A stretch of 64,000 nt of DNA from Dehalococcoidia bacterium (GTDB lineage Bacteria > Chloroflexota > Dehalococcoidia > Lucifugimonadales > UBA3495): NCBI GenBank assembly GCA_022451945.1, contig JAKUNK010000008.1, positions 44,195-108,194 on the forward strand, read 5' to 3'. Shown here piece after piece: positions 7,985 through 62,316 of the stretch; the first letter of the stretch is position 1; every line of letters begins with the position of its first letter. The notes under the pieces were generated by a model, which did not search any database, was not told where the DNA came from, and saw only the letters and a program-made list of their open reading frames with translations. Made by a program: the position numbers and the translations under genes.

Positions 7985-9745
7985 CTAATACCCCACCGCA
8001 TACGCCTCGCACCTTGGGTCTGCGCCACCCTGCAGGACTTTAGTTTCCGGGTTACGCGTGATAGCGCAGTATAGAGAAGAACCCTCCCACCAGTCGGGAT
8101 ACATCTCAATGGTATGCCCCTTCCGACGCAGAGACTCAGCAGTCTCATCTGATATTCGGCCTTCCAATCGCAACATGCCCGGCTCGTACTTAGAAGGAAA
8201 GCCAGACTGCGGAAAGTTGTAGCTGAAGAACCGTGGCTCTTCCACTGCTTCCTGGGGATCCCGTCCGAATTCCAGGATGTTTAGCAGCAACTGCAGGGTC
8301 CCCTGTGGTATGTGGTCGCCGCCGTGGGCTCCTAGAGCCATCACCGGCTCGCCGTCCTGCAATACCAACGCCGGGGCAGGGGTTAGCCTGGGCCGTTTGC
8401 CTGGCTGCACCGAGGCCGGAGCTGATTCGTCCAACTTAGATTGGGAACCTCTCAGCGAGAAGGCCAGACCGGTTCCTGGTATGATCGGTCCGCCATTCTT
8501 GGTACCCTCAGAGGGTGTGCTGGAGAAGATGTTACCGTCCCGGTCAATCACTGCGAAGTAAGAAGTTCCACCGCCGCTAGGGCCCGCTGTTGCCAATGGG
8601 ACCGGGGCGTCCTTGGGGGACAACGGTCCGCCGTTCAAAGTGGGTTTGCGACCTCGCGGGTCTCCGGCGGGAGGCATTCCTGGCCAGGCCATATCCTCAT
8701 GGATGAGTACCCTGCGCTGCGCAAGGTACTCTTCGGAAAGCAGCTCGTTGATCGGAACATCCACAAAGTACGGGTCACCAACATATTGTTCCCGGTCCGC
8801 GAATGCCAGGTTCAGTGCTTGACTCACGGTGTGTATGTACTCCGGCGTGTTGTGCCCCATCGATGACAGATCGAAACCTTCCAGAATCTTGAGGGCCTGA
8901 GGGAAGGTCGGCCCCTGTCCCCACGGCCCGGTACTATAGACATCGTATCCTTTGTAATTCACCGTTACCGGCGTGCCAACTTTCACATGATAGCGGGCCA
9001 GATCATCTTGGGTGAGCAGCCCGCCCAACTGCTGGTTGAAAGCCACGATCTTTCGGCTCAGGTCACCGGTGTATATCTCGTCCCTGGCCGCCTGCAGGGC
9101 AGCTTCCCGGCCATTGCCAGCGTTTGCGCTCTCGATCTCCGCTAACATGGACAGCGTGGCACCAAGGTCTTTCTGGTAGAAGATCTCCCCCTGCTTGGGA
9201 GGCTTTCCATTGGGCAGGTAAATCTCAGCCGTTGAGGGATGAGCGTTATAAGCATCAAATGCGGTCACAAATCGGCCTGCCAGGTAGCGGAACATGGGGA
9301 AACCGTCACTGGCAAGATCGATGGCGGCTGATGCCACTTGGCCAAAGGCCATGGTCCCGAACTGGGACAGAGACGTTATCCACGAGTCCGCGGCCGCAGG
9401 AGTCAGCGAGTTCATCACTCCTGGCACGAGTTTACCTCCGTGGTGTTTATTGAAGTAATCAACCGATGCTGCCTGCGGCCACACCCCTAGGCCATCTACT
9501 TCCACCACTTCTTTGCGGTCAGCCAAGTAAATGACAGTAGGAGCCACTCCCAAGAAACTACAGTCGTCCACGTGCACCACGTTCAACGCGATTCCCACCG
9601 CCACACCTGCGTCGATAGCGTTGCCGCCCTTCCTCAATATGTCCAGCCCCGCCATGGCGGCGCTGGGGTGACTAGCTACCACCATGCCATTCGTGCCCTG
9701 CATCAGCGGGCGGAAACTGGTTAACGTGGTTCCTGGTACGGGCAT
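7985..9745 (-). CDS. gamma-glutamyltransferase-family Ntn hydrolase without signal peptide
   Basis: 586 aa. The GGGTSYFAV autoprocessing-Thr context and overall GGT-like sequence. The N-terminus MPVPGTTLTSFRPLMQG has no hydrophobic signal region. Confidence 0.8.
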   Translation of the reverse strand: MPVPGTTLTSFRPLMQGTNGMVVASHPSAAMAGLDILRKGGNAIDAGVAVGIALNVVHVDDCSFLGVAPTVIYLADRKEVVEVDGLGVWPQAASVDYFNKHHGGKLVPGVMNSLTPAAADSWITSLSQFGTMAFGQVASAAIDLASDGFPMFRYLAGRFVTAFDAYNAHPSTAEIYLPNGKPPKQGEIFYQKDLGATLSMLAEIESANAGNGREAALQAARDEIYTGDLSRKIVAFNQQLGGLLTQDDLARYHVKVGTPVTVNYKGYDVYSTGPWGQGPTFPQALKILEGFDLSSMGHNTPEYIHTVSQALNLAFADREQYVGDPYFVDVPINELLSEEYLAQRRVLIHEDMAWPGMPPAGDPRGRKPTLNGGPLSPKDAPVPLATAGPSGGGTSYFAVIDRDGNIFSSTPSEGTKNGGPIIPGTGLAFSLRGSQSKLDESAPASVQPGKRPRLTPAPALVLQDGEPVMALGAHGGDHIPQGTLQLLLNILEFGRDPQEAVEEPRFFSYNFPQSGFPSKYEPGMLRLEGRISDETAESLRRKGHTIEMYPDWWEGSSLYCAITRNPETKVLQGGADPRCEAYAVGY

Positions 9746-10208: not shown

Positions 10209-11378
10209 ATGGACATGCCCAAAAGAATGAAATTTGGTTCTTTCCTTGGCCCGTTCCACCGCGTCGGCGAGAACCCTACTCTGGCCCTAGACCGCGACCT
10301 AGAGTTGATTGACTGGATGGACAGCTTGGGTTTTGATGAAGTCTGGGTTGGAGAGCACCATTCGGCCGGCTGGGAGATCATCGCGTCACCGGAGGTATTC
10401 ATCGCCGCAGCCGCCCAACGGACCCGATACATCAAACTGGGCACCGGCGTCGTGTCCCTGCCCTATCACCACCCGCTCATGGTCGCCAATCGAATGGTCC
10501 AGCTTGACCACATGAGCCGTGGCCGCATCCTGTTTGGCGTAGGCCCCGGCGCCCTTCCGGGGGACGCCTACATGATGGGTATACCCCACGAGACCCAGCG
10601 CGAACGGATGGACGAATCCCTGACAACCATCATGCGACTCTTCACGGAGACCGAACCGATCTCCGTGAAGACTGACTGGTTCGAACTTAACGAGGGCATG
10701 CTCCAACTCCGGCCTTACCAGCAACCCCACATGCCAGTGGCAGTCGCATCTGTCCAGACACCAGCAGGAGTCACCCTTGCGGGAAAGCACGGGGCGGCTG
10801 TACTGACCATAACCGTGCCTCGAGACCCATCGGCCGGGCCATCGGACCTGAAAGGACTCTGGTCTATCGCCGAGGAATCGGCTGCTGAACACGGCCAGCA
10901 AGTGAACCGACACGACTGGCGACTGGTGCTCCCGGTCCACATCTCCGAAACGAGGCAAGAGGCCCTCGACGATGTCCGCGTCGGCTCTGCCCAATTCCTC
11001 CGAGAATATTCAGAAGGCACAAACGGGCGGAAGGCCGTATTCGACGGCCCGATGGACAAGGTCGTCGACAATATGCGGGACTCCGGTTCCTGGATCGTAG
11101 GCTCGCCCGACGACTGCATCGAAGCCATCAACAAGCTTCAGGAACAGAGCGGCGGATTCGGCGGATTCTTGGTCCAGACAGTAGACTGGGCGCCCAGAGA
11201 AAAGGTGCTGCGCAGCTACGAACTGATGGCCCGCTACGTCATGCCTCAATTCCAAGGCACGGTTGCCAGCACCATCGCGTCAAACCAATGGGCCGCCGAG
11301 CGCAAAGACACTCTCGTGGACGGCCGAGCCCGAGCACTGGACCGGGCCAAACAGGCCTACGCTGACAGGAATAACTAG
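10209..11378 (+). CDS. LLM-class flavin-dependent oxidoreductase, paralogue 2
   Basis: ORF 10161..11378. ATG 10209 lies 8 nt after GGAGGA at 10195-10200 (389 aa). FGSFLGPFH, VWVGEHHS and IVGSPDDCIEAINKL blocks. Confidence 0.85.
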   Translation: MDMPKRMKFGSFLGPFHRVGENPTLALDRDLELIDWMDSLGFDEVWVGEHHSAGWEIIASPEVFIAAAAQRTRYIKLGTGVVSLPYHHPLMVANRMVQLDHMSRGRILFGVGPGALPGDAYMMGIPHETQRERMDESLTTIMRLFTETEPISVKTDWFELNEGMLQLRPYQQPHMPVAVASVQTPAGVTLAGKHGAAVLTITVPRDPSAGPSDLKGLWSIAEESAAEHGQQVNRHDWRLVLPVHISETRQEALDDVRVGSAQFLREYSEGTNGRKAVFDGPMDKVVDNMRDSGSWIVGSPDDCIEAINKLQEQSGGFGGFLVQTVDWAPREKVLRSYELMARYVMPQFQGTVASTIASNQWAAERKDTLVDGRARALDRAKQAYADRNN

Positions 11379-21785: not shown

Positions 21786-21875
21786 GGAGAGATGGCTGAG
21801 CGGACGAAAGCGCTGGTCTCGAAAACCAGTATAGGGGCAACTCTATCGTGGGTTCGAATCCCACTCTCTCCGCCA
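21786..21875 (+). tRNA. tRNA-Ser (anticodon CGA), encoded CCA
   Basis: 7-bp acceptor stem GGAGAGA/TCTCTCC, anticodon stem CTGGT/ACCAG with loop CTCGAAA, long variable arm, T-arm GTGGGTTCGAATCCCAC, discriminator G plus CCA. Confidence 0.9.
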
Positions 21876-29989: not shown

Positions 29990-30325
29990 CTAATCCCCAG
30001 CGAAAACCACCAATTCTTCCTGATTGATCAAAGTGGCGTCGCGGCAGCGGCGCATGATCCGGAAGATGGTGCGCACAGTGACAGAAAAGCGCTCCGCGGC
30101 GTCTTCAACCGTCAAGTCATCTTGCTGCATAGCAGACCAGATCTTAAAGTCCCTGGCCAACCTCCGGTTGCGCTGAAACCAGGCCGGGTCATCGTATTTG
30201 CACTGAGGTAGTGGGCAGTCCAGGCAGGCACCAGAAACCTCACAACCCGTATCTTCGTAATGGTAAAATTCGGGCATGGCATCAAGAACAGGGCTGGAAA
30301 TGATCGGCCAATCTAAAGCGGTCAT
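29990..30325 (-). CDS. small Cys-rich helix-turn-helix protein (putative transcriptional regulator)
   Basis: ORF 29990..30343. ATG 30325 is preceded by GGAG (111 aa). N-terminal C-x6-C-x2-C-x4-C (GCEVSGACLDCPLPQC) and C-terminal HTH-like LTVEDAAERFSVTVRTIFRIMRR. Confidence 0.6.
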   Translation of the reverse strand: MTALDWPIISSPVLDAMPEFYHYEDTGCEVSGACLDCPLPQCKYDDPAWFQRNRRLARDFKIWSAMQQDDLTVEDAAERFSVTVRTIFRIMRRCRDATLINQEELVVFAGD

Positions 30326-30344
30326 GTCGGTACTCCAAAACAAA

Positions 30345-31390: not shown

Positions 31391-31588
31391 CTAAACGAAT
31401 TTCGCCATGACCTTCTCAGCGGATAGGTGGAACGACTTGGTAGCTACCTCGCCCTCCATACCTGTCCATTGGGAACGGAGTATCAGTTTATCCACCCCCA
31501 GATCTTTATACCTGTGGGTCTCTTCTAGGCACTCTTCAGGATTGCCAATGATAAAGCGGTCTTCAACTACCAGAGCCGATAAACGAGG
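31391..31588 (-). pseudogene. C-terminal remnant of an LLM-class oxidoreductase gene
   Basis: 65 codons open between TGA (31589-31591) and TAG (31391-31393) with no start codon. The translation ..VVEDRFIIGNPEECLEETHRYKDLGVDKLILRS..TKSFHLSAEKVMAKFV parallels the C-terminus of the 10209..11378 product (IVGSPDDCIEAINKL..LRSYELMARYVMPQF). Confidence 0.6.
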
Positions 31589-31598
31589 TCATTGGACA

Positions 31599-31919
31599 TC
31601 AAGCCCACGAGTCACGACGACCCAACACTAACCCGTTCTCCAGTTCAAGCTCCGCTTTGAGGTTCCGGAAAAACAAGAACTTCTTGCTGTCGATGTTCAT
31701 TGTGGTGGTGTGCTGGGCCAAGTTGGGTGGGATGAACAACTCCACACCGTCCTGTTTTATCTTGCGGTACGGGGAGACGTCGCGACGGGAGAGTCGGGTA
31801 TCGACCGATACCTCAGTGGAGTTGCCGCCTCAAGATGTGAACGAAAGCAGGTCGACGGCCGCCTGACCGCCTTTGCTCTGGATATGGTGAACGGCTTCTG
31901 GTGTCAGGTTAATCTGCAT
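31599..31919 (-). CDS. candidate selenoprotein, small HesB/IscA-like or 'CC/Se-motif'-like protein (Sec at codon 30)
   Basis: ATG 31919 is preceded by GAGAGG (31930..31925). In-frame TGA at 31832..31830 and stop TGA at 31601..31599. Conceptual 106 aa: MQINLTPEAVHHIQSKGGQAAVDLLSFTS-U-GGNSTEVSVDTRLSRRDVSPYRKIKQDGVELFIPPNLAQHTTTMNIDSKKFLFFRNLKAELELENGLVLGRRDSWA. The frame stays open for 76 codons after the TGA, and the first ATG comes 44 codons downstream. Confidence 0.6.
31797..31812 (-). promoter_or_regulatory. candidate bacterial SECIS apical hairpin
   Basis: On the mRNA: UGA, then 17 nt, then GGUAUC-GGUC-GAUACC (6-bp perfect stem, GGUC tetraloop). Confidence 0.5.
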
Positions 31920-32007
31920 CGGAACCTCTCAGGCTGGTCGCCTTCTCCGGCGTGGTTGCCGTTAACTTATGATGCGCTAACTGCGGTCAAGCTTCAATCC
32001 CTGGGAG

Positions 32008-32586
32008 TTAGTTCTTGAGCTTTAGGATCAAGCTGTTGCGCGCGTCCAAGCTGGCCGGGTGGACAGTCTCTCTTTTTTCGAGCCGCACGGCCATCTCACG
32101 GGATAGGAATTCCAGCAGCGCCAGGTCCAGACTCTCTAGTGCCATATCATGCAGCTTGGCTTGGTAGGAGTAGACGGCCGCTTTATGTGGGTCCAACTTG
32201 TCGGCCAAAAACACCAGCTTGCCCAGATCGTCCAGAGAAGCATGGGCGGTTGAATGCCAGCGCACCGCCTCACAGAGACTGTGTTCAGCAAGCTCTTCTT
32301 CCATGCGTAGGAGTTCAGCACCAACCGGGCCGTGGAGCAGGAGAGGAAAATCCCGTTCCACATCGGTCACTAACACTCCCAGGTCAGCGGACATCTTCAG
32401 GAGCTCATCCCCTGGAACGGCTCGACATACGTCATGTGCCAGAGCGCCCAGTTCGGCACGGTCTAAGGGAATGCCGTGACGAGAGGCCAACTCCATAGCC
32501 ACGTCACGGACGCGATATATATGTGCCTGCAGTCCGTCGGGCAGGCCCTCCAGGCGGTTCTGGAGGCTTTGAAGCAAGTCGGTCAC
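32008..32586 (-). CDS. HD-domain phosphohydrolase (YqeK-like)
   Basis: ORF 32008..32688 would overlap the HIT gene by 77 nt. The in-frame GTG 32586 gives 192 aa. H..HD motif (LGALAHDVCR). Start uncertain. Confidence 0.65.
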   Translation of the reverse strand: MTDLLQSLQNRLEGLPDGLQAHIYRVRDVAMELASRHGIPLDRAELGALAHDVCRAVPGDELLKMSADLGVLVTDVERDFPLLLHGPVGAELLRMEEELAEHSLCEAVRWHSTAHASLDDLGKLVFLADKLDPHKAAVYSYQAKLHDMALESLDLALLEFLSREMAVRLEKRETVHPASLDARNSLILKLKN

Positions 32587-32611
32587 TGCAGTAACTGTTA
32601 GACCGGGCGGC

Positions 32612-32962
32612 CTAGCCCATAGCTCCCAATTTCTTGCCGCCCAGGAGGTGCATGTGGGGATGAGGAATCTCCTGGCCCGAGTCATCACCCTGGTTTAACA
32701 CCAGTCGGTATCCACTGAGGGTGATACCTTCGCGCCGGGCAATCTCTTCCGCTACCACGAACATGTGACCCATGATGGGCACCTGTCCTGGGCCGACGTA
32801 GGCCAATGACGCTATATGCATATTAGGGACGATAAGCATATGCACGGGGGCCTTGGGGTTGATGTCTTTTACGGCAAAAACCCGGTCGTCCCGGTAAACC
32901 GGGGCAGCGTGCATAGGGTCTTGCGCCATGTTGCAGAAAACACATTCTGTAGTGGTGGTCAT
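32612..32962 (-). CDS. HIT (histidine triad) family nucleotide hydrolase/transferase
   Basis: 116 aa. CVFC N-terminus and HPHMHLLGG histidine triad. Confidence 0.9.
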   Translation of the reverse strand: MTTTTECVFCNMAQDPMHAAPVYRDDRVFAVKDINPKAPVHMLIVPNMHIASLAYVGPGQVPIMGHMFVVAEEIARREGITLSGYRLVLNQGDDSGQEIPHPHMHLLGGKKLGAMG

Positions 32963-57707: not shown

Positions 57708-57970
57708 GACCACTCCAGGCTGAGCTGTCGAGAACTGCAGACTTCGGATGCCAACTGTCGCCGTTCATGTCCACAGCACAGACGTTCATTCCCTCAACCA
57801 GAGAGCATTCGGCTTTAAGGCCGGCGAGACTACTACTTTCAGAACCACCAAATGGCACAAACTTTATAGCTCAAAAGTTGAACGTGGGTTGAACACGGGA
57901 GCCGGCATATAGGATGGCGTCTCGGTCAGCACCGCGAAACATATATACAGGTATACAGGAGACGACACAG

Positions 57971-59548
57971 ATGGCCCAGAAGATCTCCTCCCAAGGCCTA
58001 AACGACCTACTACAAGGGAAGTCTCCCTTCGCGTTGATTGACGTCCGGGAGTCCGGCGAATACAACGCCACCCACATACCCGGTGCAGCCCTCATACCTC
58101 GCCGTCGGATCGAGTACATAATCGAAAGCTCAGTGCCGTTCAAAGGAACTCGAATAGTCGTCTGCTGTGACGACGGGCGCCGCTCTCAGTTAGCCTCGGC
58201 AACCCTGGACAAATTAGGGTACACCGATGTCCATTATCTTGAAGGTGGTACCAATCGCTGGTCCAGTAACGACCTACCAACAGAGTGGGGTGTGAATGTC
58301 CCCAGCAAGGACTTCGGCGAGATGCAAGAAGTTGTCCACCACGTCCCCGAGATTACCGCCGACGACCTCCATCAGAAGATTGAGAATGGAGAGAAACTGA
58401 TCATCTTAGACACCCGCACACCGGAGGAATACCACAACTTCTGCATCCCCGGCGGACGCAGCATGCCAGGCGGTGAGTTGGCCTTACGCATTACCGACAT
58501 TAAAAAAGAACTAGACCCTGACACCACCTTAGTGATTAACTGCGCAGGCCGGACCCGCAGCATCATGGGTACACGCGTATTGCAGCGAATGGGAGTGGAG
58601 GCAGTGGGTCTCAAGAACGGTACTTCAGGCTGGCTGTTGGCCGGTTACAACCTGGAATACGGCGGAGACCGATTGACTCTTCCCGACGTTTCCAAAGAGA
58701 GCCGCGCCGCTGCTGAAGAATACGCCGCCAAACTGGCAAGTGAGGACGGCGTCGGCTACCTGGACATCCCTGCCCTTCGGCAAGCCGTAGCCAAACAAAC
58801 CCAAGAATCAGTGTACCTAATAGACGTCCGAACCGAGGGCGAATTCAAAGCGGGACACATCCCCGGCTTCCGCTGGTTTCCTGGCGGACAGGCCGTCCAA
58901 CGCTCAGATGACGTGGCCGTGGTCAAAAACGCCACCTACATTTTCTGCTGCGACGGCAAAGCTAGGGCCACTATCACGGGATCCATATACCGCCAACTCG
59001 GCCACGAGAACGTCTTCGCTGTCGATGGCGGAACTCTAGCCTGGCAAGCTGCCGGGCAGCGTCTGGAAACCGGGTTCACGACCAGCAGTCCCGCTGGTAT
59101 GAAAGAGGCCGAAGCATTAGTGAAAAAGGTTTCCGCTGAAGACCTAAGTCATAACCAAGCTGACCTGGTACTCTACGTAGACACCAGCGAAGACTTTTCT
59201 CAGGGCCACACTCCAGGCGCCAAGTGGATTACTCGCAGTTGGCTGGAGATCGAGATCGCGGACATAGCTCCATCCAAGAGCGCATCAATCGCGGTAACCT
59301 GCCGTGACGGACGTAGTTCAACCCTGGCTGCTGCCACACTTCAAGGCCTGGGTTACACGAATATCACCACCCTGGACGGCGGTATGACTGCTTGGAAGCA
59401 AGCTGGGTTGCCCGTTGAAGAGGGCCTTACCGGCATCGTGCGCCCGCCCTCTGATATCAATTATTTGGGCGTGTCCCGCAGCTACGGCGAAATGATGAAT
59501 TACCTGAGGTGGGAGACCGCCCTGGGAGAGAAATACGCCGCCGACTAG
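57971..59548 (+). CDS. four-domain rhodanese (sulfurtransferase) protein
   Basis: ORF from 57914. ATG 57971 follows AGGAG (525 aa). Four ~120-aa rhodanese units, each with an active-site-loop Cys: CCDDGRRS, CAGRTRS, CCDGKARA, CRDGRSS. Confidence 0.85.
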   Translation: MAQKISSQGLNDLLQGKSPFALIDVRESGEYNATHIPGAALIPRRRIEYIIESSVPFKGTRIVVCCDDGRRSQLASATLDKLGYTDVHYLEGGTNRWSSNDLPTEWGVNVPSKDFGEMQEVVHHVPEITADDLHQKIENGEKLIILDTRTPEEYHNFCIPGGRSMPGGELALRITDIKKELDPDTTLVINCAGRTRSIMGTRVLQRMGVEAVGLKNGTSGWLLAGYNLEYGGDRLTLPDVSKESRAAAEEYAAKLASEDGVGYLDIPALRQAVAKQTQESVYLIDVRTEGEFKAGHIPGFRWFPGGQAVQRSDDVAVVKNATYIFCCDGKARATITGSIYRQLGHENVFAVDGGTLAWQAAGQRLETGFTTSSPAGMKEAEALVKKVSAEDLSHNQADLVLYVDTSEDFSQGHTPGAKWITRSWLEIEIADIAPSKSASIAVTCRDGRSSTLAAATLQGLGYTNITTLDGGMTAWKQAGLPVEEGLTGIVRPPSDINYLGVSRSYGEMMNYLRWETALGEKYAAD

Positions 59549-59609
59549 ACCAGCACAGACCACATGAGACTGAAATCAATCTCTATGATAAATACTGAGG
59601 AGGGACTTG

Positions 59610-60800
59610 ATGGCCACGCGACAAGATAATGTGATTCCTGATTTTCTGAGGATGGACGAGGCGATCGGTTCAGACCCCGCCAACGCCCACAAGAGCGGTA
59701 ACTGGCACGGCTGGCCCACGAAAGACCTGAACCCCGTCACTCTCATGGACGACGAGGGCCGGACAGTCCGTATTCGCACTCCTGTGATGGAGCTTGAAGG
59801 CCTGATCACTCCCACCGATCTGCACTACACCGTGCAACACTTCGCCGTTCCCCCGGTTGTGCCGACAGACCAGTGGGAGCTGAAAATCCACGGTCAGGTA
59901 AAGAATGAACTGACTCTGAATTTCGATCAACTCCGGCGTTTCCCTGGACGCAGCGTACGCACCGTCATGGAATGCTCGGGGAGCGACGCCACTTTCTTCG
60001 AATACTTCAAAGACGAAGGCCCTAAGCCTTCCCGAACCCAAGAGTGCATGATTCTTAGCACCGGCGAATGGACCGGCGTCCCTCTAGCCGCTGTGCTGAA
60101 CGCCGCCGGTCTTAGTGACAAGTCCCTTTACGTCAGGGCCGTTGGAAACGACGAAGGAGTGCCCGCAACAGCCGCTGAAGGCACCAAGCCTTTCTACTAT
60201 GACAAAGGTTTGCCCATACAGAAAGCGCTCCATCCCGACACTATCCTGGCCTACGCGCAGAACGGAGCGTTGCTGGAACACCTCCACGGCGCACCTGTCC
60301 GGCTCCTAGTGCCCGGTTGGTCAGGAAACTGGTCGGTGAAGTGGCTGACAGATCTTGAGATCCTTGACCACATGCCCGACTGCTGGTACCACTACGAGTT
60401 CTACTATTATGGCGACTCAGCTGACGACCCCAATAAGGAACTCATCACAACCCTCGGCGTGAAGTCCATCGTGACCCAGCCCAATGATGACACTGAAGAA
60501 ATGAGCAAGGGCGTCCACATGGTCCGTGGTTACGCCTGGAGCGGGGCTGGGGCGATATCTGAAGTTGATGTCAGCGTCGACGGCGGAGAGACCTGGCATG
60601 CCGCCCACATCGAAGAACCGCGCGACCGATTCATGTGGGTTCGCTGGTCCTACCGCTGGGAAGCTGGCAAAGCGGGCGACTACACTATAATGTCTCGCGC
60701 CACTGACGAGATAGGCAGAGTCCAGTCTCGCGAACCCCGCTACAACAACATGCGCAAGAACTTCAGCGCCATAGTTGGATATCCGGTCAAAGTTAAATAG
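59610..60800 (+). CDS. sulfite-oxidase-family molybdopterin oxidoreductase with dimerisation domain, no signal peptide (paralogue A)
   Basis: ATG 59610 follows GAGGAGGG (396 aa). FRRFPGRSVRTVMECSGSD (Mo-Cys context), HGAPVRLLVPGW and a C-terminal GYAWSGAG..VSVDGGETWHAA Ig-like domain. Confidence 0.8.
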   Translation: MATRQDNVIPDFLRMDEAIGSDPANAHKSGNWHGWPTKDLNPVTLMDDEGRTVRIRTPVMELEGLITPTDLHYTVQHFAVPPVVPTDQWELKIHGQVKNELTLNFDQLRRFPGRSVRTVMECSGSDATFFEYFKDEGPKPSRTQECMILSTGEWTGVPLAAVLNAAGLSDKSLYVRAVGNDEGVPATAAEGTKPFYYDKGLPIQKALHPDTILAYAQNGALLEHLHGAPVRLLVPGWSGNWSVKWLTDLEILDHMPDCWYHYEFYYYGDSADDPNKELITTLGVKSIVTQPNDDTEEMSKGVHMVRGYAWSGAGAISEVDVSVDGGETWHAAHIEEPRDRFMWVRWSYRWEAGKAGDYTIMSRATDEIGRVQSREPRYNNMRKNFSAIVGYPVKVK

Positions 60801-60829
60801 CAGGTTCTGATGCTCAGGAGTTAGACCAA

Positions 60830-61180
60830 ATGCCCATAATCGACCACACAGACGTCCGTCTCTCACCAACAACTGAGAGGGTTCGGGAGCGGTACCTAGT
60901 ATCTAAAGAGCTAGGTGCGTTATCATTAACCGTGAAAGAGGTTGAGATTTCCCCAGGGTGGGAAGGACGCATGCACACCCACCCGATAGATGTCTCAATC
61001 CAGGTGTTGTCCGGCGCCATCCAAATCATTCTTGGTGACGAAGTCCGGACGGTACGGGCGGGAACAACTCTGCTGGCCCCGCCTGGAGTACCCCACAAGA
61101 TGATTCACCATCTTTGGACACCGGCATTATTGCTGATTACATATCCGTCGTCGGAACTAGAGACCGACCACCTGGAATAA
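60830..61180 (+). CDS. cupin-2 domain protein
   Basis: 116 aa. GRMHTHPIDVSIQVLSG and LLAPPGVPHKM cupin motifs. Confidence 0.7.
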   Translation: MPIIDHTDVRLSPTTERVRERYLVSKELGALSLTVKEVEISPGWEGRMHTHPIDVSIQVLSGAIQIILGDEVRTVRAGTTLLAPPGVPHKMIHHLWTPALLLITYPSSELETDHLE

Positions 61181-61209
61181 GCAACACAGCTTCTTGAGGA
61201 GGAGCCCTT

Positions 61210-62316
61210 ATGGCCTTGCCACAGATTGGTACGAAAGCGGAACCGCAGATCATCCCCACCAATGCGGGCCTACGGACCTGGGCCGTACCGCCAGAGGGAT
61301 TACAGAACAACATCGTTCCCAACGACCTGTTTTACATCCGCAATCACTGGAAAGATAGCCCTGAGATCGACATCAACACGTTCACATTGAAGATTGACGG
61401 TGAAGTTGAACGGGAGATTACACTGTCTTTCGAAGACCTCAAGAAACTACCTCAAAAGCGCTTCCAGGTTGCCTTCGAGTGTTGCGGCAATAGCCCGGTG
61501 CCTGAGTACTACACCAAGGCCTTGCGCATTAGCTCGGTCATGGAACAGATCAAGGGCCACGGCATCATGGGCAATGCCGAATGGGCGGGAGTCTCCCTCA
61601 AAGATGTGCTGGAACTGGCTGGAGTCAAAGACTCAGCCGTCGAAGTCATGTTTGAAGGCGCTGACCACGGTGCTGACGAAGTGGTAGGCGACCCTTCCGA
61701 AGTTACTTACGAGCGTAGTCTGCCCGTGAAGAAAGCCCTTCACGAAGACACCATCTTGGCCTACGAGATGAACGGAGAGCCTCTGCCCAAGGACCACGGT
61801 TACCCGCTGCGTCTCTTAGTATCTGGCTGGTACGGGATGAACTCAGTCAAGTGGCTTGTGGGCATCCACGTGCTGGATCACAAGTTCGAAGGGTTCTACA
61901 TGACCCAACGTTACATGACCATGAACGAACCAGGCAGCCCGGAGCCATATCGGTACTATAGCAAGCTTCAGGTCAAGTCCATCATAACCAACCCTGTCCC
62001 TGGTGAGATTGTGCCTCTAAGCGGGTACAATCTAGCGGGCGCCGCCTGGTCCGGCGAGGAAGACATCGAAGAAGTAGAGATTAGCACTGACGGCGGCGAG
62101 ACCTGGGACCCGGTGGAGAAACTCCACGACCGTGAGGCTTACTCTTGGTACCGTTGGGAGCACACCTGGAAACCCAAGGCGGCAGGCAAATACACTATCA
62201 TGTGCCGCGCCACCAACGTGGAAGGCGTCACCCAGCCCTTAGAATTCCCGAATCCTTGGGACGGTCGGGGCTACGGGAACAACATGGTTTTCCCATACGA
62301 GGTAGAAGTCCGATAG
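61210..62316 (+). CDS. sulfite-oxidase-family molybdopterin oxidoreductase, no signal peptide (paralogue B)
   Basis: 368 aa. GAGGAGGAG SD. LFYIRNHW, FQVAFECCGNS, HGYPLRLLVSGWYG and GAAWSGEE..ISTDGGETWDPV. Confidence 0.8.
   Translation: MALPQIGTKAEPQIIPTNAGLRTWAVPPEGLQNNIVPNDLFYIRNHWKDSPEIDINTFTLKIDGEVEREITLSFEDLKKLPQKRFQVAFECCGNSPVPEYYTKALRISSVMEQIKGHGIMGNAEWAGVSLKDVLELAGVKDSAVEVMFEGADHGADEVVGDPSEVTYERSLPVKKALHEDTILAYEMNGEPLPKDHGYPLRLLVSGWYGMNSVKWLVGIHVLDHKFEGFYMTQRYMTMNEPGSPEPYRYYSKLQVKSIITNPVPGEIVPLSGYNLAGAAWSGEEDIEEVEISTDGGETWDPVEKLHDREAYSWYRWEHTWKPKAAGKYTIMCRATNVEGVTQPLEFPNPWDGRGYGNNMVFPYEVEVR

Follow-up and report, generated by a model that had tools for sequence, protein, structure and literature searches.

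The CC/Se motif family of small (seleno)proteins (NCBIfam 'Moor_selen_rel') was first predicted in Moorella thermoacetica, and a 2026 review gives the motif of its model NF041239 as CxxU, where U stands for selenocysteine (Sec) (PMC13188914). According to a recent review, selenoproteins are rarely kept by aerobic bacteria. For the Dehalococcoidia, BSepDB ranks two metagenome-assembled genomes (MAGs) in its top ten of bacteria by number of selenoprotein genes, which is 49 and 46 (PMC13326102), and a form of the Sec-specific tRNA (tRNA-Sec) has been reported from Chloroflexi. A full-text search of the literature retrieved no paper linking the SAR202 clade with Sec. Here, a 64-kb stretch of a Dehalococcoidia contig (the window) was analyzed. 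Positions 31599..31919 of its minus strand very likely form one gene for a selenoprotein of 106 residues, in which an in-frame UGA is recoded with the aid of a selenocysteine insertion sequence (SECIS) and which belongs to the CC/Se family and has an IscA/SufA-like fold.

The gene structure was verified on the minus strand. The ATG at 31919..31917 is preceded by a Shine-Dalgarno-like GAGAGG (31925..31930, minus strand, read directly) with a spacer of 5 nt, and inspection of the upstream 15-mers revealed a purine-rich AGAGG or GAGG box at a similar spot in most related loci. Direct translation of the frame up to the first TGA yields MQINLTPEAVHHIQSKGGQAAVDLLSFTS. Codon 30 is this in-frame TGA (31832..31830), the proposed Sec codon; 76 sense codons follow, and the ordinary stop of the gene (31601..31599) is also a TGA. 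The coding sequence thus comprises 106 codons plus the terminal TGA. All of these coordinates had been given in an initial annotation of the window and were found to be correct. The next Met after the in-frame TGA is codon 74, that is, 44 codons further on, and the only tool-listed open reading frame (ORF) 3′ of the TGA starts with GTG and has 48 codons. For these reasons neither half reaches 60 amino acids, and the ORF listing bears out what had been said about the missing ATG and the shortness of both halves. The encoded protein contains no Cys at all, and Ser precedes residue 30 (S-U-G-G-N), so that, as had been proposed, Ser-Sec stands in place of a Cys-Sec or Cys-Cys pair.

The distribution of the gene was analyzed by scanning one genome per GTDB species. 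The scan yielded 46 loci, all of them from MAGs of Dehalococcoidia, SAR202 or Chloroflexota, and each of them matched the query from residue 1 to about residue 100–106. In all 46 loci, the frame continues across a TGA at codon 30, the hairpin described below is present, and both flanks are conserved according to the pattern D-L-[LIV]-x-x-[ST]-[STN]-U-[GAS]-[GA]-x-x-x-E-V-S-V-D-T. Homologues thus span the TGA, for which a search had been suggested in the initial annotation. The protein identities to the window range from 91% down to 38%, and the closest locus (L004, from an uncultured Dehalococcoidia MAG) has neighboring genes that are 84–98% identical to those of the window, which therefore derives from the genome of a SAR202-type member of the Dehalococcoidia. 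In an alignment of 48 sequences, TGA occupies position 30 throughout (31830..31832 in the window), and the residue directly before it is Ser, Thr or Asn in every case. A protein search with U replaced by C retrieved mostly C-terminal fragments of 59–87 residues, together with two full-length proteins (P0001 and P0003). The ENA record of P0001 shows 'W' at residue 30; its DNA has TGA, and the record is not reproduced by genetic code table 11, so the 'W' results from translation of the TGA under another genetic code. Taken together, the gene and its proposed recoding hairpin are shared by 46 or more marine species of SAR202-type Dehalococcoidia.

The substitution pattern was quantified as mean pairwise differences at codon positions 1/2/3 in the clade of the window (15 sequences). 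The values were 0.135/0.051/0.434 for codons 2–29, 0.099/0.099/0.309 for codons 31–35, which lie between the TGA and the hairpin, and 0.186/0.074/0.369 for codons 42–105 after the hairpin. Substitutions are thus dominated by third positions on both sides of the TGA alike, which argues against two independent genes as well as against a pseudogene. This pattern indicates that both halves are translated in one frame.

Downstream of the TGA, the mRNA can form the hairpin GGUAUC-GGUC-GAUACC (31797..31812, minus strand), which overlaps codons 36–41, (E)VSVDT, and is proposed to be the upper stem-loop of a bacterial SECIS. The arms are located at 31812..31807 and 31802..31797 and the loop at 31806..31803; the gap from the UGA is 17 nt to the stem, as initially annotated, and 23 nt to the loop. 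All six pairs of the stem are formed in every one of the 48 aligned sequences. At pair 4, A-U is found in 43 sequences, and the remaining 5 have G-C; this exchange consists of Val GTA to GTG and Asp GAT to GAC, both of which are synonymous. This compensatory exchange occurred in two lineages, once in L019, L020, L021 and L024, and independently in L048. In two sequences, one other stem pair has become a G-U wobble. The apical loop is GGUC in 47 of the 48 sequences and AGUU in L029.

Codon usage within the hairpin was also found to be unusually restricted. Across the 48 sequences, the relative codon entropies of codons 36–41 (E, V, S, V, D, T) were 0, 0.24, 0.06, 0.07, 0.50 and 0, and the value for Asp40 is entirely due to the compensatory change; equally conserved amino acid columns elsewhere in the protein have values of about 0.3–0.99. 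GTA is used for the Val at codon 37 in 43 of 48 sequences, and it is a minor codon at other conserved Val columns (4/44 and 5/46). In the clade of the window, the 18 nucleotides of the hairpin codons are identical in all 15 sequences irrespective of codon position. The comparison indicates that the hairpin is under RNA-level selection and that its structure is kept beyond the requirements of the protein.

The bSECISearch model, as outlined in PMC13188914, has a loop of 3–9 nt with a G in the first two loop positions, an upper stem of 4–16 bp, a UGA-to-loop distance of 16–37 nt and a minimum free energy (MFE) of at most −7.5 kcal/mol. The window has a loop of 4 nt, a stem of 6 bp, a distance of 23 nt and −13.2 kcal/mol for the UGA plus 48 nt, all of which are within these published limits. 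The specificity of the signature was analyzed with a pattern scan for a TGA that is flanked by open frame in both directions and followed, at 16–37 nt, by the GGTC loop of a hairpin with a stem of 5 bp or more. Both strands of the window and of the 46 loci, about 1 Mb in total, were covered. The scan returned 49 matches, every one of which was a gene of this family, without a single false hit. A lower helix enclosing the upper hairpin (31825..31829 with 31784..31788, minus strand) is possible, with 78.7% of cells paired and an alternation of CG, GC and GU at one pair. When it is shifted by one or two bases, 63.8% are paired, and RNAalifold predicts the helix in neither register. The lower helix is thus tentative. 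Overall, the hairpin appears to behave as a bacterial SECIS, and we infer that it is bound by SelB.

The following course of translation is proposed. The ribosome would encounter the UGA at codon 30, and the 16-nt hairpin starting 17 nt downstream would serve as a bacterial SECIS that recruits the SelB-GTP-Sec-tRNA(Sec) complex. Sec would be inserted at codon 30, and translation would continue to the second TGA. The product would be a single-domain CC/Se protein with Sec at the position of the first cluster-ligating Cys of IscA (Cys35).

The residue that relatives outside SAR202 carry in the Sec column was determined with distant homologues, which were obtained by searching 1.84 billion representative proteins exhaustively with a profile and by a further search that was word-indexed. 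Nine full-length non-SAR202 homologues have Cys in this column (P0069, P0073, P0081, P0092, P0095, P0096, P0098, P0099 and P0100), and thus Cys-containing homologues that span the TGA position, for which a search had been suggested, do exist. P0094 likewise has Cys in this column. A single N-terminal Cys in the context [GA]-C-G-[GK] aligns to the Sec column; these proteins also have a Cys near the C-terminus, which is absent from the SAR202 proteins. Within SAR202, the presence of a partner Cys depends on the clade. It is missing in the clade of the window (T/S-S-U-G-G-N), is located at +3 in the largest clade (U-A-G-C), and at −4 in several smaller clades (C-x-x-x-U).

Three loci contain a second, tandem paralogue directly after the first gene, again with an in-frame TGA of its own and with the motif C-L-D-H-U-A-G-S (L007, about 10390–10751 with the TGA at 10476; L011, TGA at 8573; L012, TGA at 10474). 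The usual hairpin is broken in this paralogue, and a different hairpin of 5 bp, GCCGA-GGUC-UCGGU, begins 12 nt past the UGA, its loop starting 17 nt past the UGA; that GGUC is presented once more speaks for a SECIS. In L012, the N-terminal part of the paralogue is in another frame, owing to a frameshift or else to an error in the long-read assembly.

The family assignment is based on profile searches. With U replaced by C, the protein had a single NCBIfam match, the CC/Se motif family (seleno)protein NF041239, with 45.9 bits versus a cut-off of 40, in an alignment of residues 1–90 to positions 1–89 of the 91-position model. For all relatives tested, some of which score below the cut-off, NF041239 was the top-ranking family or the only one, and Pfam PF28096 (CC_Se_fam) is recorded on homologues that include P0001, P0003 and many SAR202 fragments. 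Two families had been named in the initial annotation. The CC/Se motif family is supported by the match above the curated cut-off and by PF28096, whereas the HesB-like selenoprotein family (TIGR01911) gave no hit at E ≤ 10 and was not sustained.

Several results support the suggestion of a HesB/IscA-type layout in which Sec occupies the Cys loop. Pfam Fe-S_biosyn (PF01521) matched with 17.8 bits, which is below its gathering threshold of 26.3. An hhalign comparison with IscA, SufA and ErpA gave E = 2.6e-4 at a probability of 42% and aligned Sec to Cys35 of IscA. An AlphaFold (AF2) model of P0001, which is 82% identical to the window protein, was calculated with ten full-length rows and reached a predicted local distance difference test (pLDDT) value of 85.2 and a predicted template modelling (TM) score of 0.76; an earlier model from two full-length rows had a pLDDT of 56 and was not used. 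The top Foldseek matches in the PDB were SufA (2d2a), IscA (1x0g/1r94/1s98), HI1723, 2p2e, AQ_1857 and DsrR. The SufA and IscA matches had TM scores of about 0.55 and a probability of 1.00, and the top eight specific matches were all of the SufA, IscA or HesB type (E from 5e-5 to 2e-2). Residue 30 is located at the turn between the model strands 19–29 and 32–40, that is, at the tip of the β2-β3 hairpin. An IscA/SufA-like fold is thus supported by the structural model.

Several results weigh against a selenoprotein and have to be considered together. The 64-kb window and some 0.9 Mb of sequence from related loci yielded no gene for selA, selB, selD or tRNA-Sec. The window and the 46 loci gave no match when they were scanned for SelA, SelB and SelD motifs, Pfam annotation of all 60 larger ORFs of the window revealed no sel gene, and ARAGORN reported no tRNA-Sec in the window and loci, only tRNA-Ser(CGA) and one tRNA-Tyr. 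Because all four components are missing from the window and the 46 loci, the decoding of the UGA as Sec is something that we infer from the gene and its relatives. A second selenoprotein gene was likewise detected neither in the window nor in the loci: a scan of the window for ORFs interrupted by a single TGA uncovered ordinary gene boundaries only, and an all-against-all tblastn that looked for a TGA opposite a Cys produced only antisense-frame artefacts, which were rejected. The hairpin is thermodynamically unremarkable, with an MFE of only −6.2 kcal/mol in isolation; the 71-nt region folds no better than shuffled sequences (z = −0.05). Rfam assigned neither a SECIS nor any other RNA family to 31550..31980 at E ≤ 10, and a scan of the window at the gathering threshold found no SECIS family. 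The hairpin is thus not significant from the window sequence alone, and therefore the case rests on the comparison among relatives. Part of the conservation of the hairpin is at the protein level, because EVSV is also present in the Cys homologues P0069 and P0095. In addition, the window protein has no Cys that could resolve a selenenylsulfide, which is unusual for a redox selenoprotein.

Two SAR202-type sequences have lost the TGA altogether. Codon 30 is GGA (Gly) in P0003 (L003, 203–523), which has new Cys residues at 26 and 28, and it is CGA (Arg) in P0097, which was found on two independent marine contigs (L050, 514–819, and L051). Both codons are one base away from TGA, and both genes retain the hairpin, with the loop GGUA or GGUC. 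Sec is therefore dispensable in some lineages, which also counts against the proposed role of the UGA. It had been stated at the outset that homologues with residues other than Cys or Sec at codon 30 would speak against a selenoprotein; taken literally, such residues do occur, in 2 of about 50 sequences. The hairpins of P0003 and P0097 look like fossil SECIS elements that remained after the loss of Sec. The term 'fossil SECIS' has been used in PMC1794560 in the context of Sec-to-Cys conversions.

These results could also be explained if the UGA were read through without Sec, with a near-cognate or suppressor tRNA inserting Trp, Cys, Arg or Gly and the hairpin acting as a stimulator. Such a mechanism would account for the lack of visible Sec machinery, for the Gly and Arg codons one base from UGA in genes that keep the hairpin, and for the absence of a partner Cys from the window protein. 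However, the remote homologues have Cys, the usual counterpart of Sec, in the respective column, and the hairpin fits the bacterial SECIS model and shares its GGUC loop with the SECIS of fdhF. Furthermore, the family is curated as a selenoprotein family, large selenoproteomes have been reported for marine Dehalococcoidia MAGs (PMC13326102), and TGA doubles as the ordinary stop of this very gene. Read-through without Sec is therefore regarded as improbable. The isolate name of one of the two Dehalococcoidia MAGs in BSepDB is of the style that is also found for many of the 46 loci.

A true stop at codon 30 would leave a peptide of 29 residues, a separately initiated C-terminal protein, or both, with the hairpin acting in regulation or coupling. 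Public gene predictions are of this type almost without exception. They consist of C-terminal fragments of 59–87 residues and one N-terminal fragment of 29 residues, the former including calls such as 'MEVSVDT...' with 64–75 residues, and in some clades a GTG is indeed present just before EVSVDT. In contrast, none of ATG, GTG or TTG occurs after the TGA and before codon 59 in the clade of the window, and the five codons that separate the TGA from the hairpin show the substitutions of a coding sequence (see above). In addition, the two halves together match one domain (NF041239, Pfam Fe-S_biosyn, IscA fold), and the Cys homologues are continuous proteins. Termination at codon 30 thus appears very improbable. 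A decaying pseudogene with the TGA as a nonsense mutation has practically no probability, because, in spite of local decay in the form of an adjacent luciferase-like monooxygenase gene reduced to a remnant, the TGA is at the same position in 46 of 46 species with protein identities down to 38%, a divergence that shows that the loci are not assembly copies of one and the same sequence, the codons before and after the TGA are under purifying selection, and neither frameshifts nor further stops occur, so that conservation effectively refutes this explanation. The insertion of Sec at codon 30 is therefore retained as the preferred explanation, and the family, the fold and the Cys homologues are all in congruence with it.

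The genomic neighborhood of the selenoprotein gene is also conserved. Upstream, on the same strand, are a gene for a YqeK protein of the HD-domain, Ap4A hydrolase type (32008..32688, minus strand; TIGR00488 with 80.4 bits versus a cut-off of 70.15) and a gene for a HIT-family, HinT-like protein (32612..32962, minus strand; Pfam HIT with 77.4 bits). The best NCBIfam match of the latter was purine nucleoside phosphoramidase, below the cut-off of that family. The longest-ORF calls of the two genes overlap by 77 nt (32612–32688); the true start of YqeK is probably further downstream, because the family match begins only at residue 55. Both genes precede the selenoprotein gene in the same orientation in 45 of 46 loci, with yqeK immediately upstream and usually ending 50–160 nt before the ATG of the selenoprotein gene. 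The hinT-like gene, yqeK and the selenoprotein gene are thus probably co-transcribed as an operon.

On the 3′ side, a convergent gene for an enoyl-CoA hydratase and a conserved ORF of 117 codons are found. The latter (29990–30343, minus strand) encodes a protein that is rich in Cys in its N-terminal part and resembles a helix-turn-helix in its C-terminal part, and it is present next to the locus in 43 of 46 genomes. It matched no Pfam or NCBIfam family above threshold and showed only a faint similarity to zinc-binding and helix-turn-helix regions of transposases. Directly past the stop of the selenoprotein gene (31394–31588, minus strand), about 65 codons resemble the C-terminus of a luciferase-like monooxygenase, without a start codon and without the N-terminal part. 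A homologous segment is located 1.25–1.95 kb downstream of the selenoprotein start in seven relatives (L004, L006, L007, L009, L010, L014 and L042). This spacing fits a full-length monooxygenase gene, and therefore the genome of the window seems to have deleted most of it.

The genomic contexts of the Cys forms were different from case to case. The P0099 gene (5323–5631 in L052 and L053, 6001–6309 in L054) directly follows genes of the cystathionine beta-synthase and cystathionine gamma-lyase type, and a heliorhodopsin is encoded on the contig. Other Cys forms are found next to an acyl-CoA synthetase and MarR (P0096) or an aminopeptidase C (P0094). A role in sulfur metabolism was considered on the basis of the P0099 context and rejected, because it is a single case and the contexts of the Cys forms have no common theme.

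A few further features of the window were noted. Positions 57914–62316 (plus strand) contain a cluster of the sulfur-oxidation type, which encodes a protein with four rhodanese domains, two sulfite-oxidase-type molybdopterin oxidoreductases and a cupin. The window also encodes four luciferase-like monooxygenases, two family III CoA-transferases and two enoyl-CoA hydratases. A tRNA-Ser with the anticodon CGA and a length of 90 nt (21786–21875, plus strand) lies beside a gene for a Fur-family regulator, and the same tRNA is present in L032 (1012–1100).

With regard to function, our guess, which we hold with low confidence, is that the protein is a small selenol-based redox protein or a chalcogen- or metal-binding, carrier-type protein, possibly a dimer. 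A more far-reaching possibility, which we consider rather unlikely, is that the SAR202 branch represents a functionally distinct selenoprotein with a lone Sec as the only reactive residue on an IscA scaffold, retained in a fixed hinT-yqeK-selenoprotein trio throughout a clade that is abundant in the oxygenated deep ocean. If so, its chemistry would differ from that of the usual Cys/Sec redox pair and could involve, for example, an intermolecular diselenide or the hand-over of Se, S or a metal, and selenium would be a specific micronutrient requirement of SAR202.

Irrespective of the function, public records either show the gene as a 'hypothetical protein' of 59–87 residues or overlook it, and the correct gene model would be that of a selenoprotein of 106 residues. 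The combination of TGA and hairpin is sufficient to single out this gene in the scanned sequences. That 46 or more SAR202-type species have kept a selenoprotein suggests that selenium is used by a major heterotroph of the deep ocean. The shifting position of the partner Cys (none, +3 or −4) and the two losses of Sec by single-base changes provide a compact natural series on the role of Sec in the CC/Se family. Current concepts of recoding remain unchanged, and the gene is a sound, if fairly ordinary, new member of a known family.

In comparison with described systems, the hairpin is closest to the fdhF SECIS of E. coli. The fdhF SECIS sequence used for the comparison matches fdhF in 5413 E. 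coli genomes at 100%, and the initial statement that it presents a GGUC apical loop was correct. Both elements have this identical loop on a short stem just past the UGA and within the coding region. The loop begins 18 nt past the UGA in fdhF versus 23 nt here, and the stem of the window differs in being a perfect 6-bp helix without a bulged U and of unrelated sequence.

At the protein level, the window protein and IscA, SufA and ErpA share the N-terminal helix motif M-x-I-x-L-T-x-x-A. Of the IscA ligands Cys35, Cys99 and Cys101 (E. coli numbering), just the first has a counterpart in the window protein, namely Sec. Because the C-terminal C-x-C is absent, the protein cannot ligate a cluster in the manner of IscA, and the role of a classical A-type Fe-S carrier is unlikely. 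DsrR, which is encoded in the dsr cluster of Allochromatium, is likewise an IscA scaffold without the Cys triad; it was also the sole and very weak match of the family profile to PDB sequences (2k4z, E = 0.11). However, Ala takes the place of Sec in DsrR, and the genomic context is unrelated. The HesB-like selenoprotein is similar in being a small IscA-fold protein of Sec-rich bacteria with Sec at the first conserved Cys, but its motif is UxGP compared to U-G-G-N in the window, and it represents a separate sequence family.

The CC/Se family remains the closest relative, as judged by the hidden Markov model (HMM) and the published motif. A protein search with P0094 for canonical members returned the query only. 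The window protein and the family have in common the size, the single domain and the placement of Sec or Cys roughly 30 residues into the sequence. They differ in the residue before Sec, which is Ser (Thr or Asn in relatives) instead of Cys, and thus the eponymous Cys partner, be it the C-C or C-U of the family name or that of the published CxxU, is lacking in the window protein. They also differ in origin, the SAR202 members coming from a Chloroflexota clade of the oxic ocean and the family otherwise from anaerobic Firmicutes. Because the HMM places the protein in a curated family and yet the Cys partner of that family is absent, it is classed as a variant of the CC/Se family with a motif of its own.

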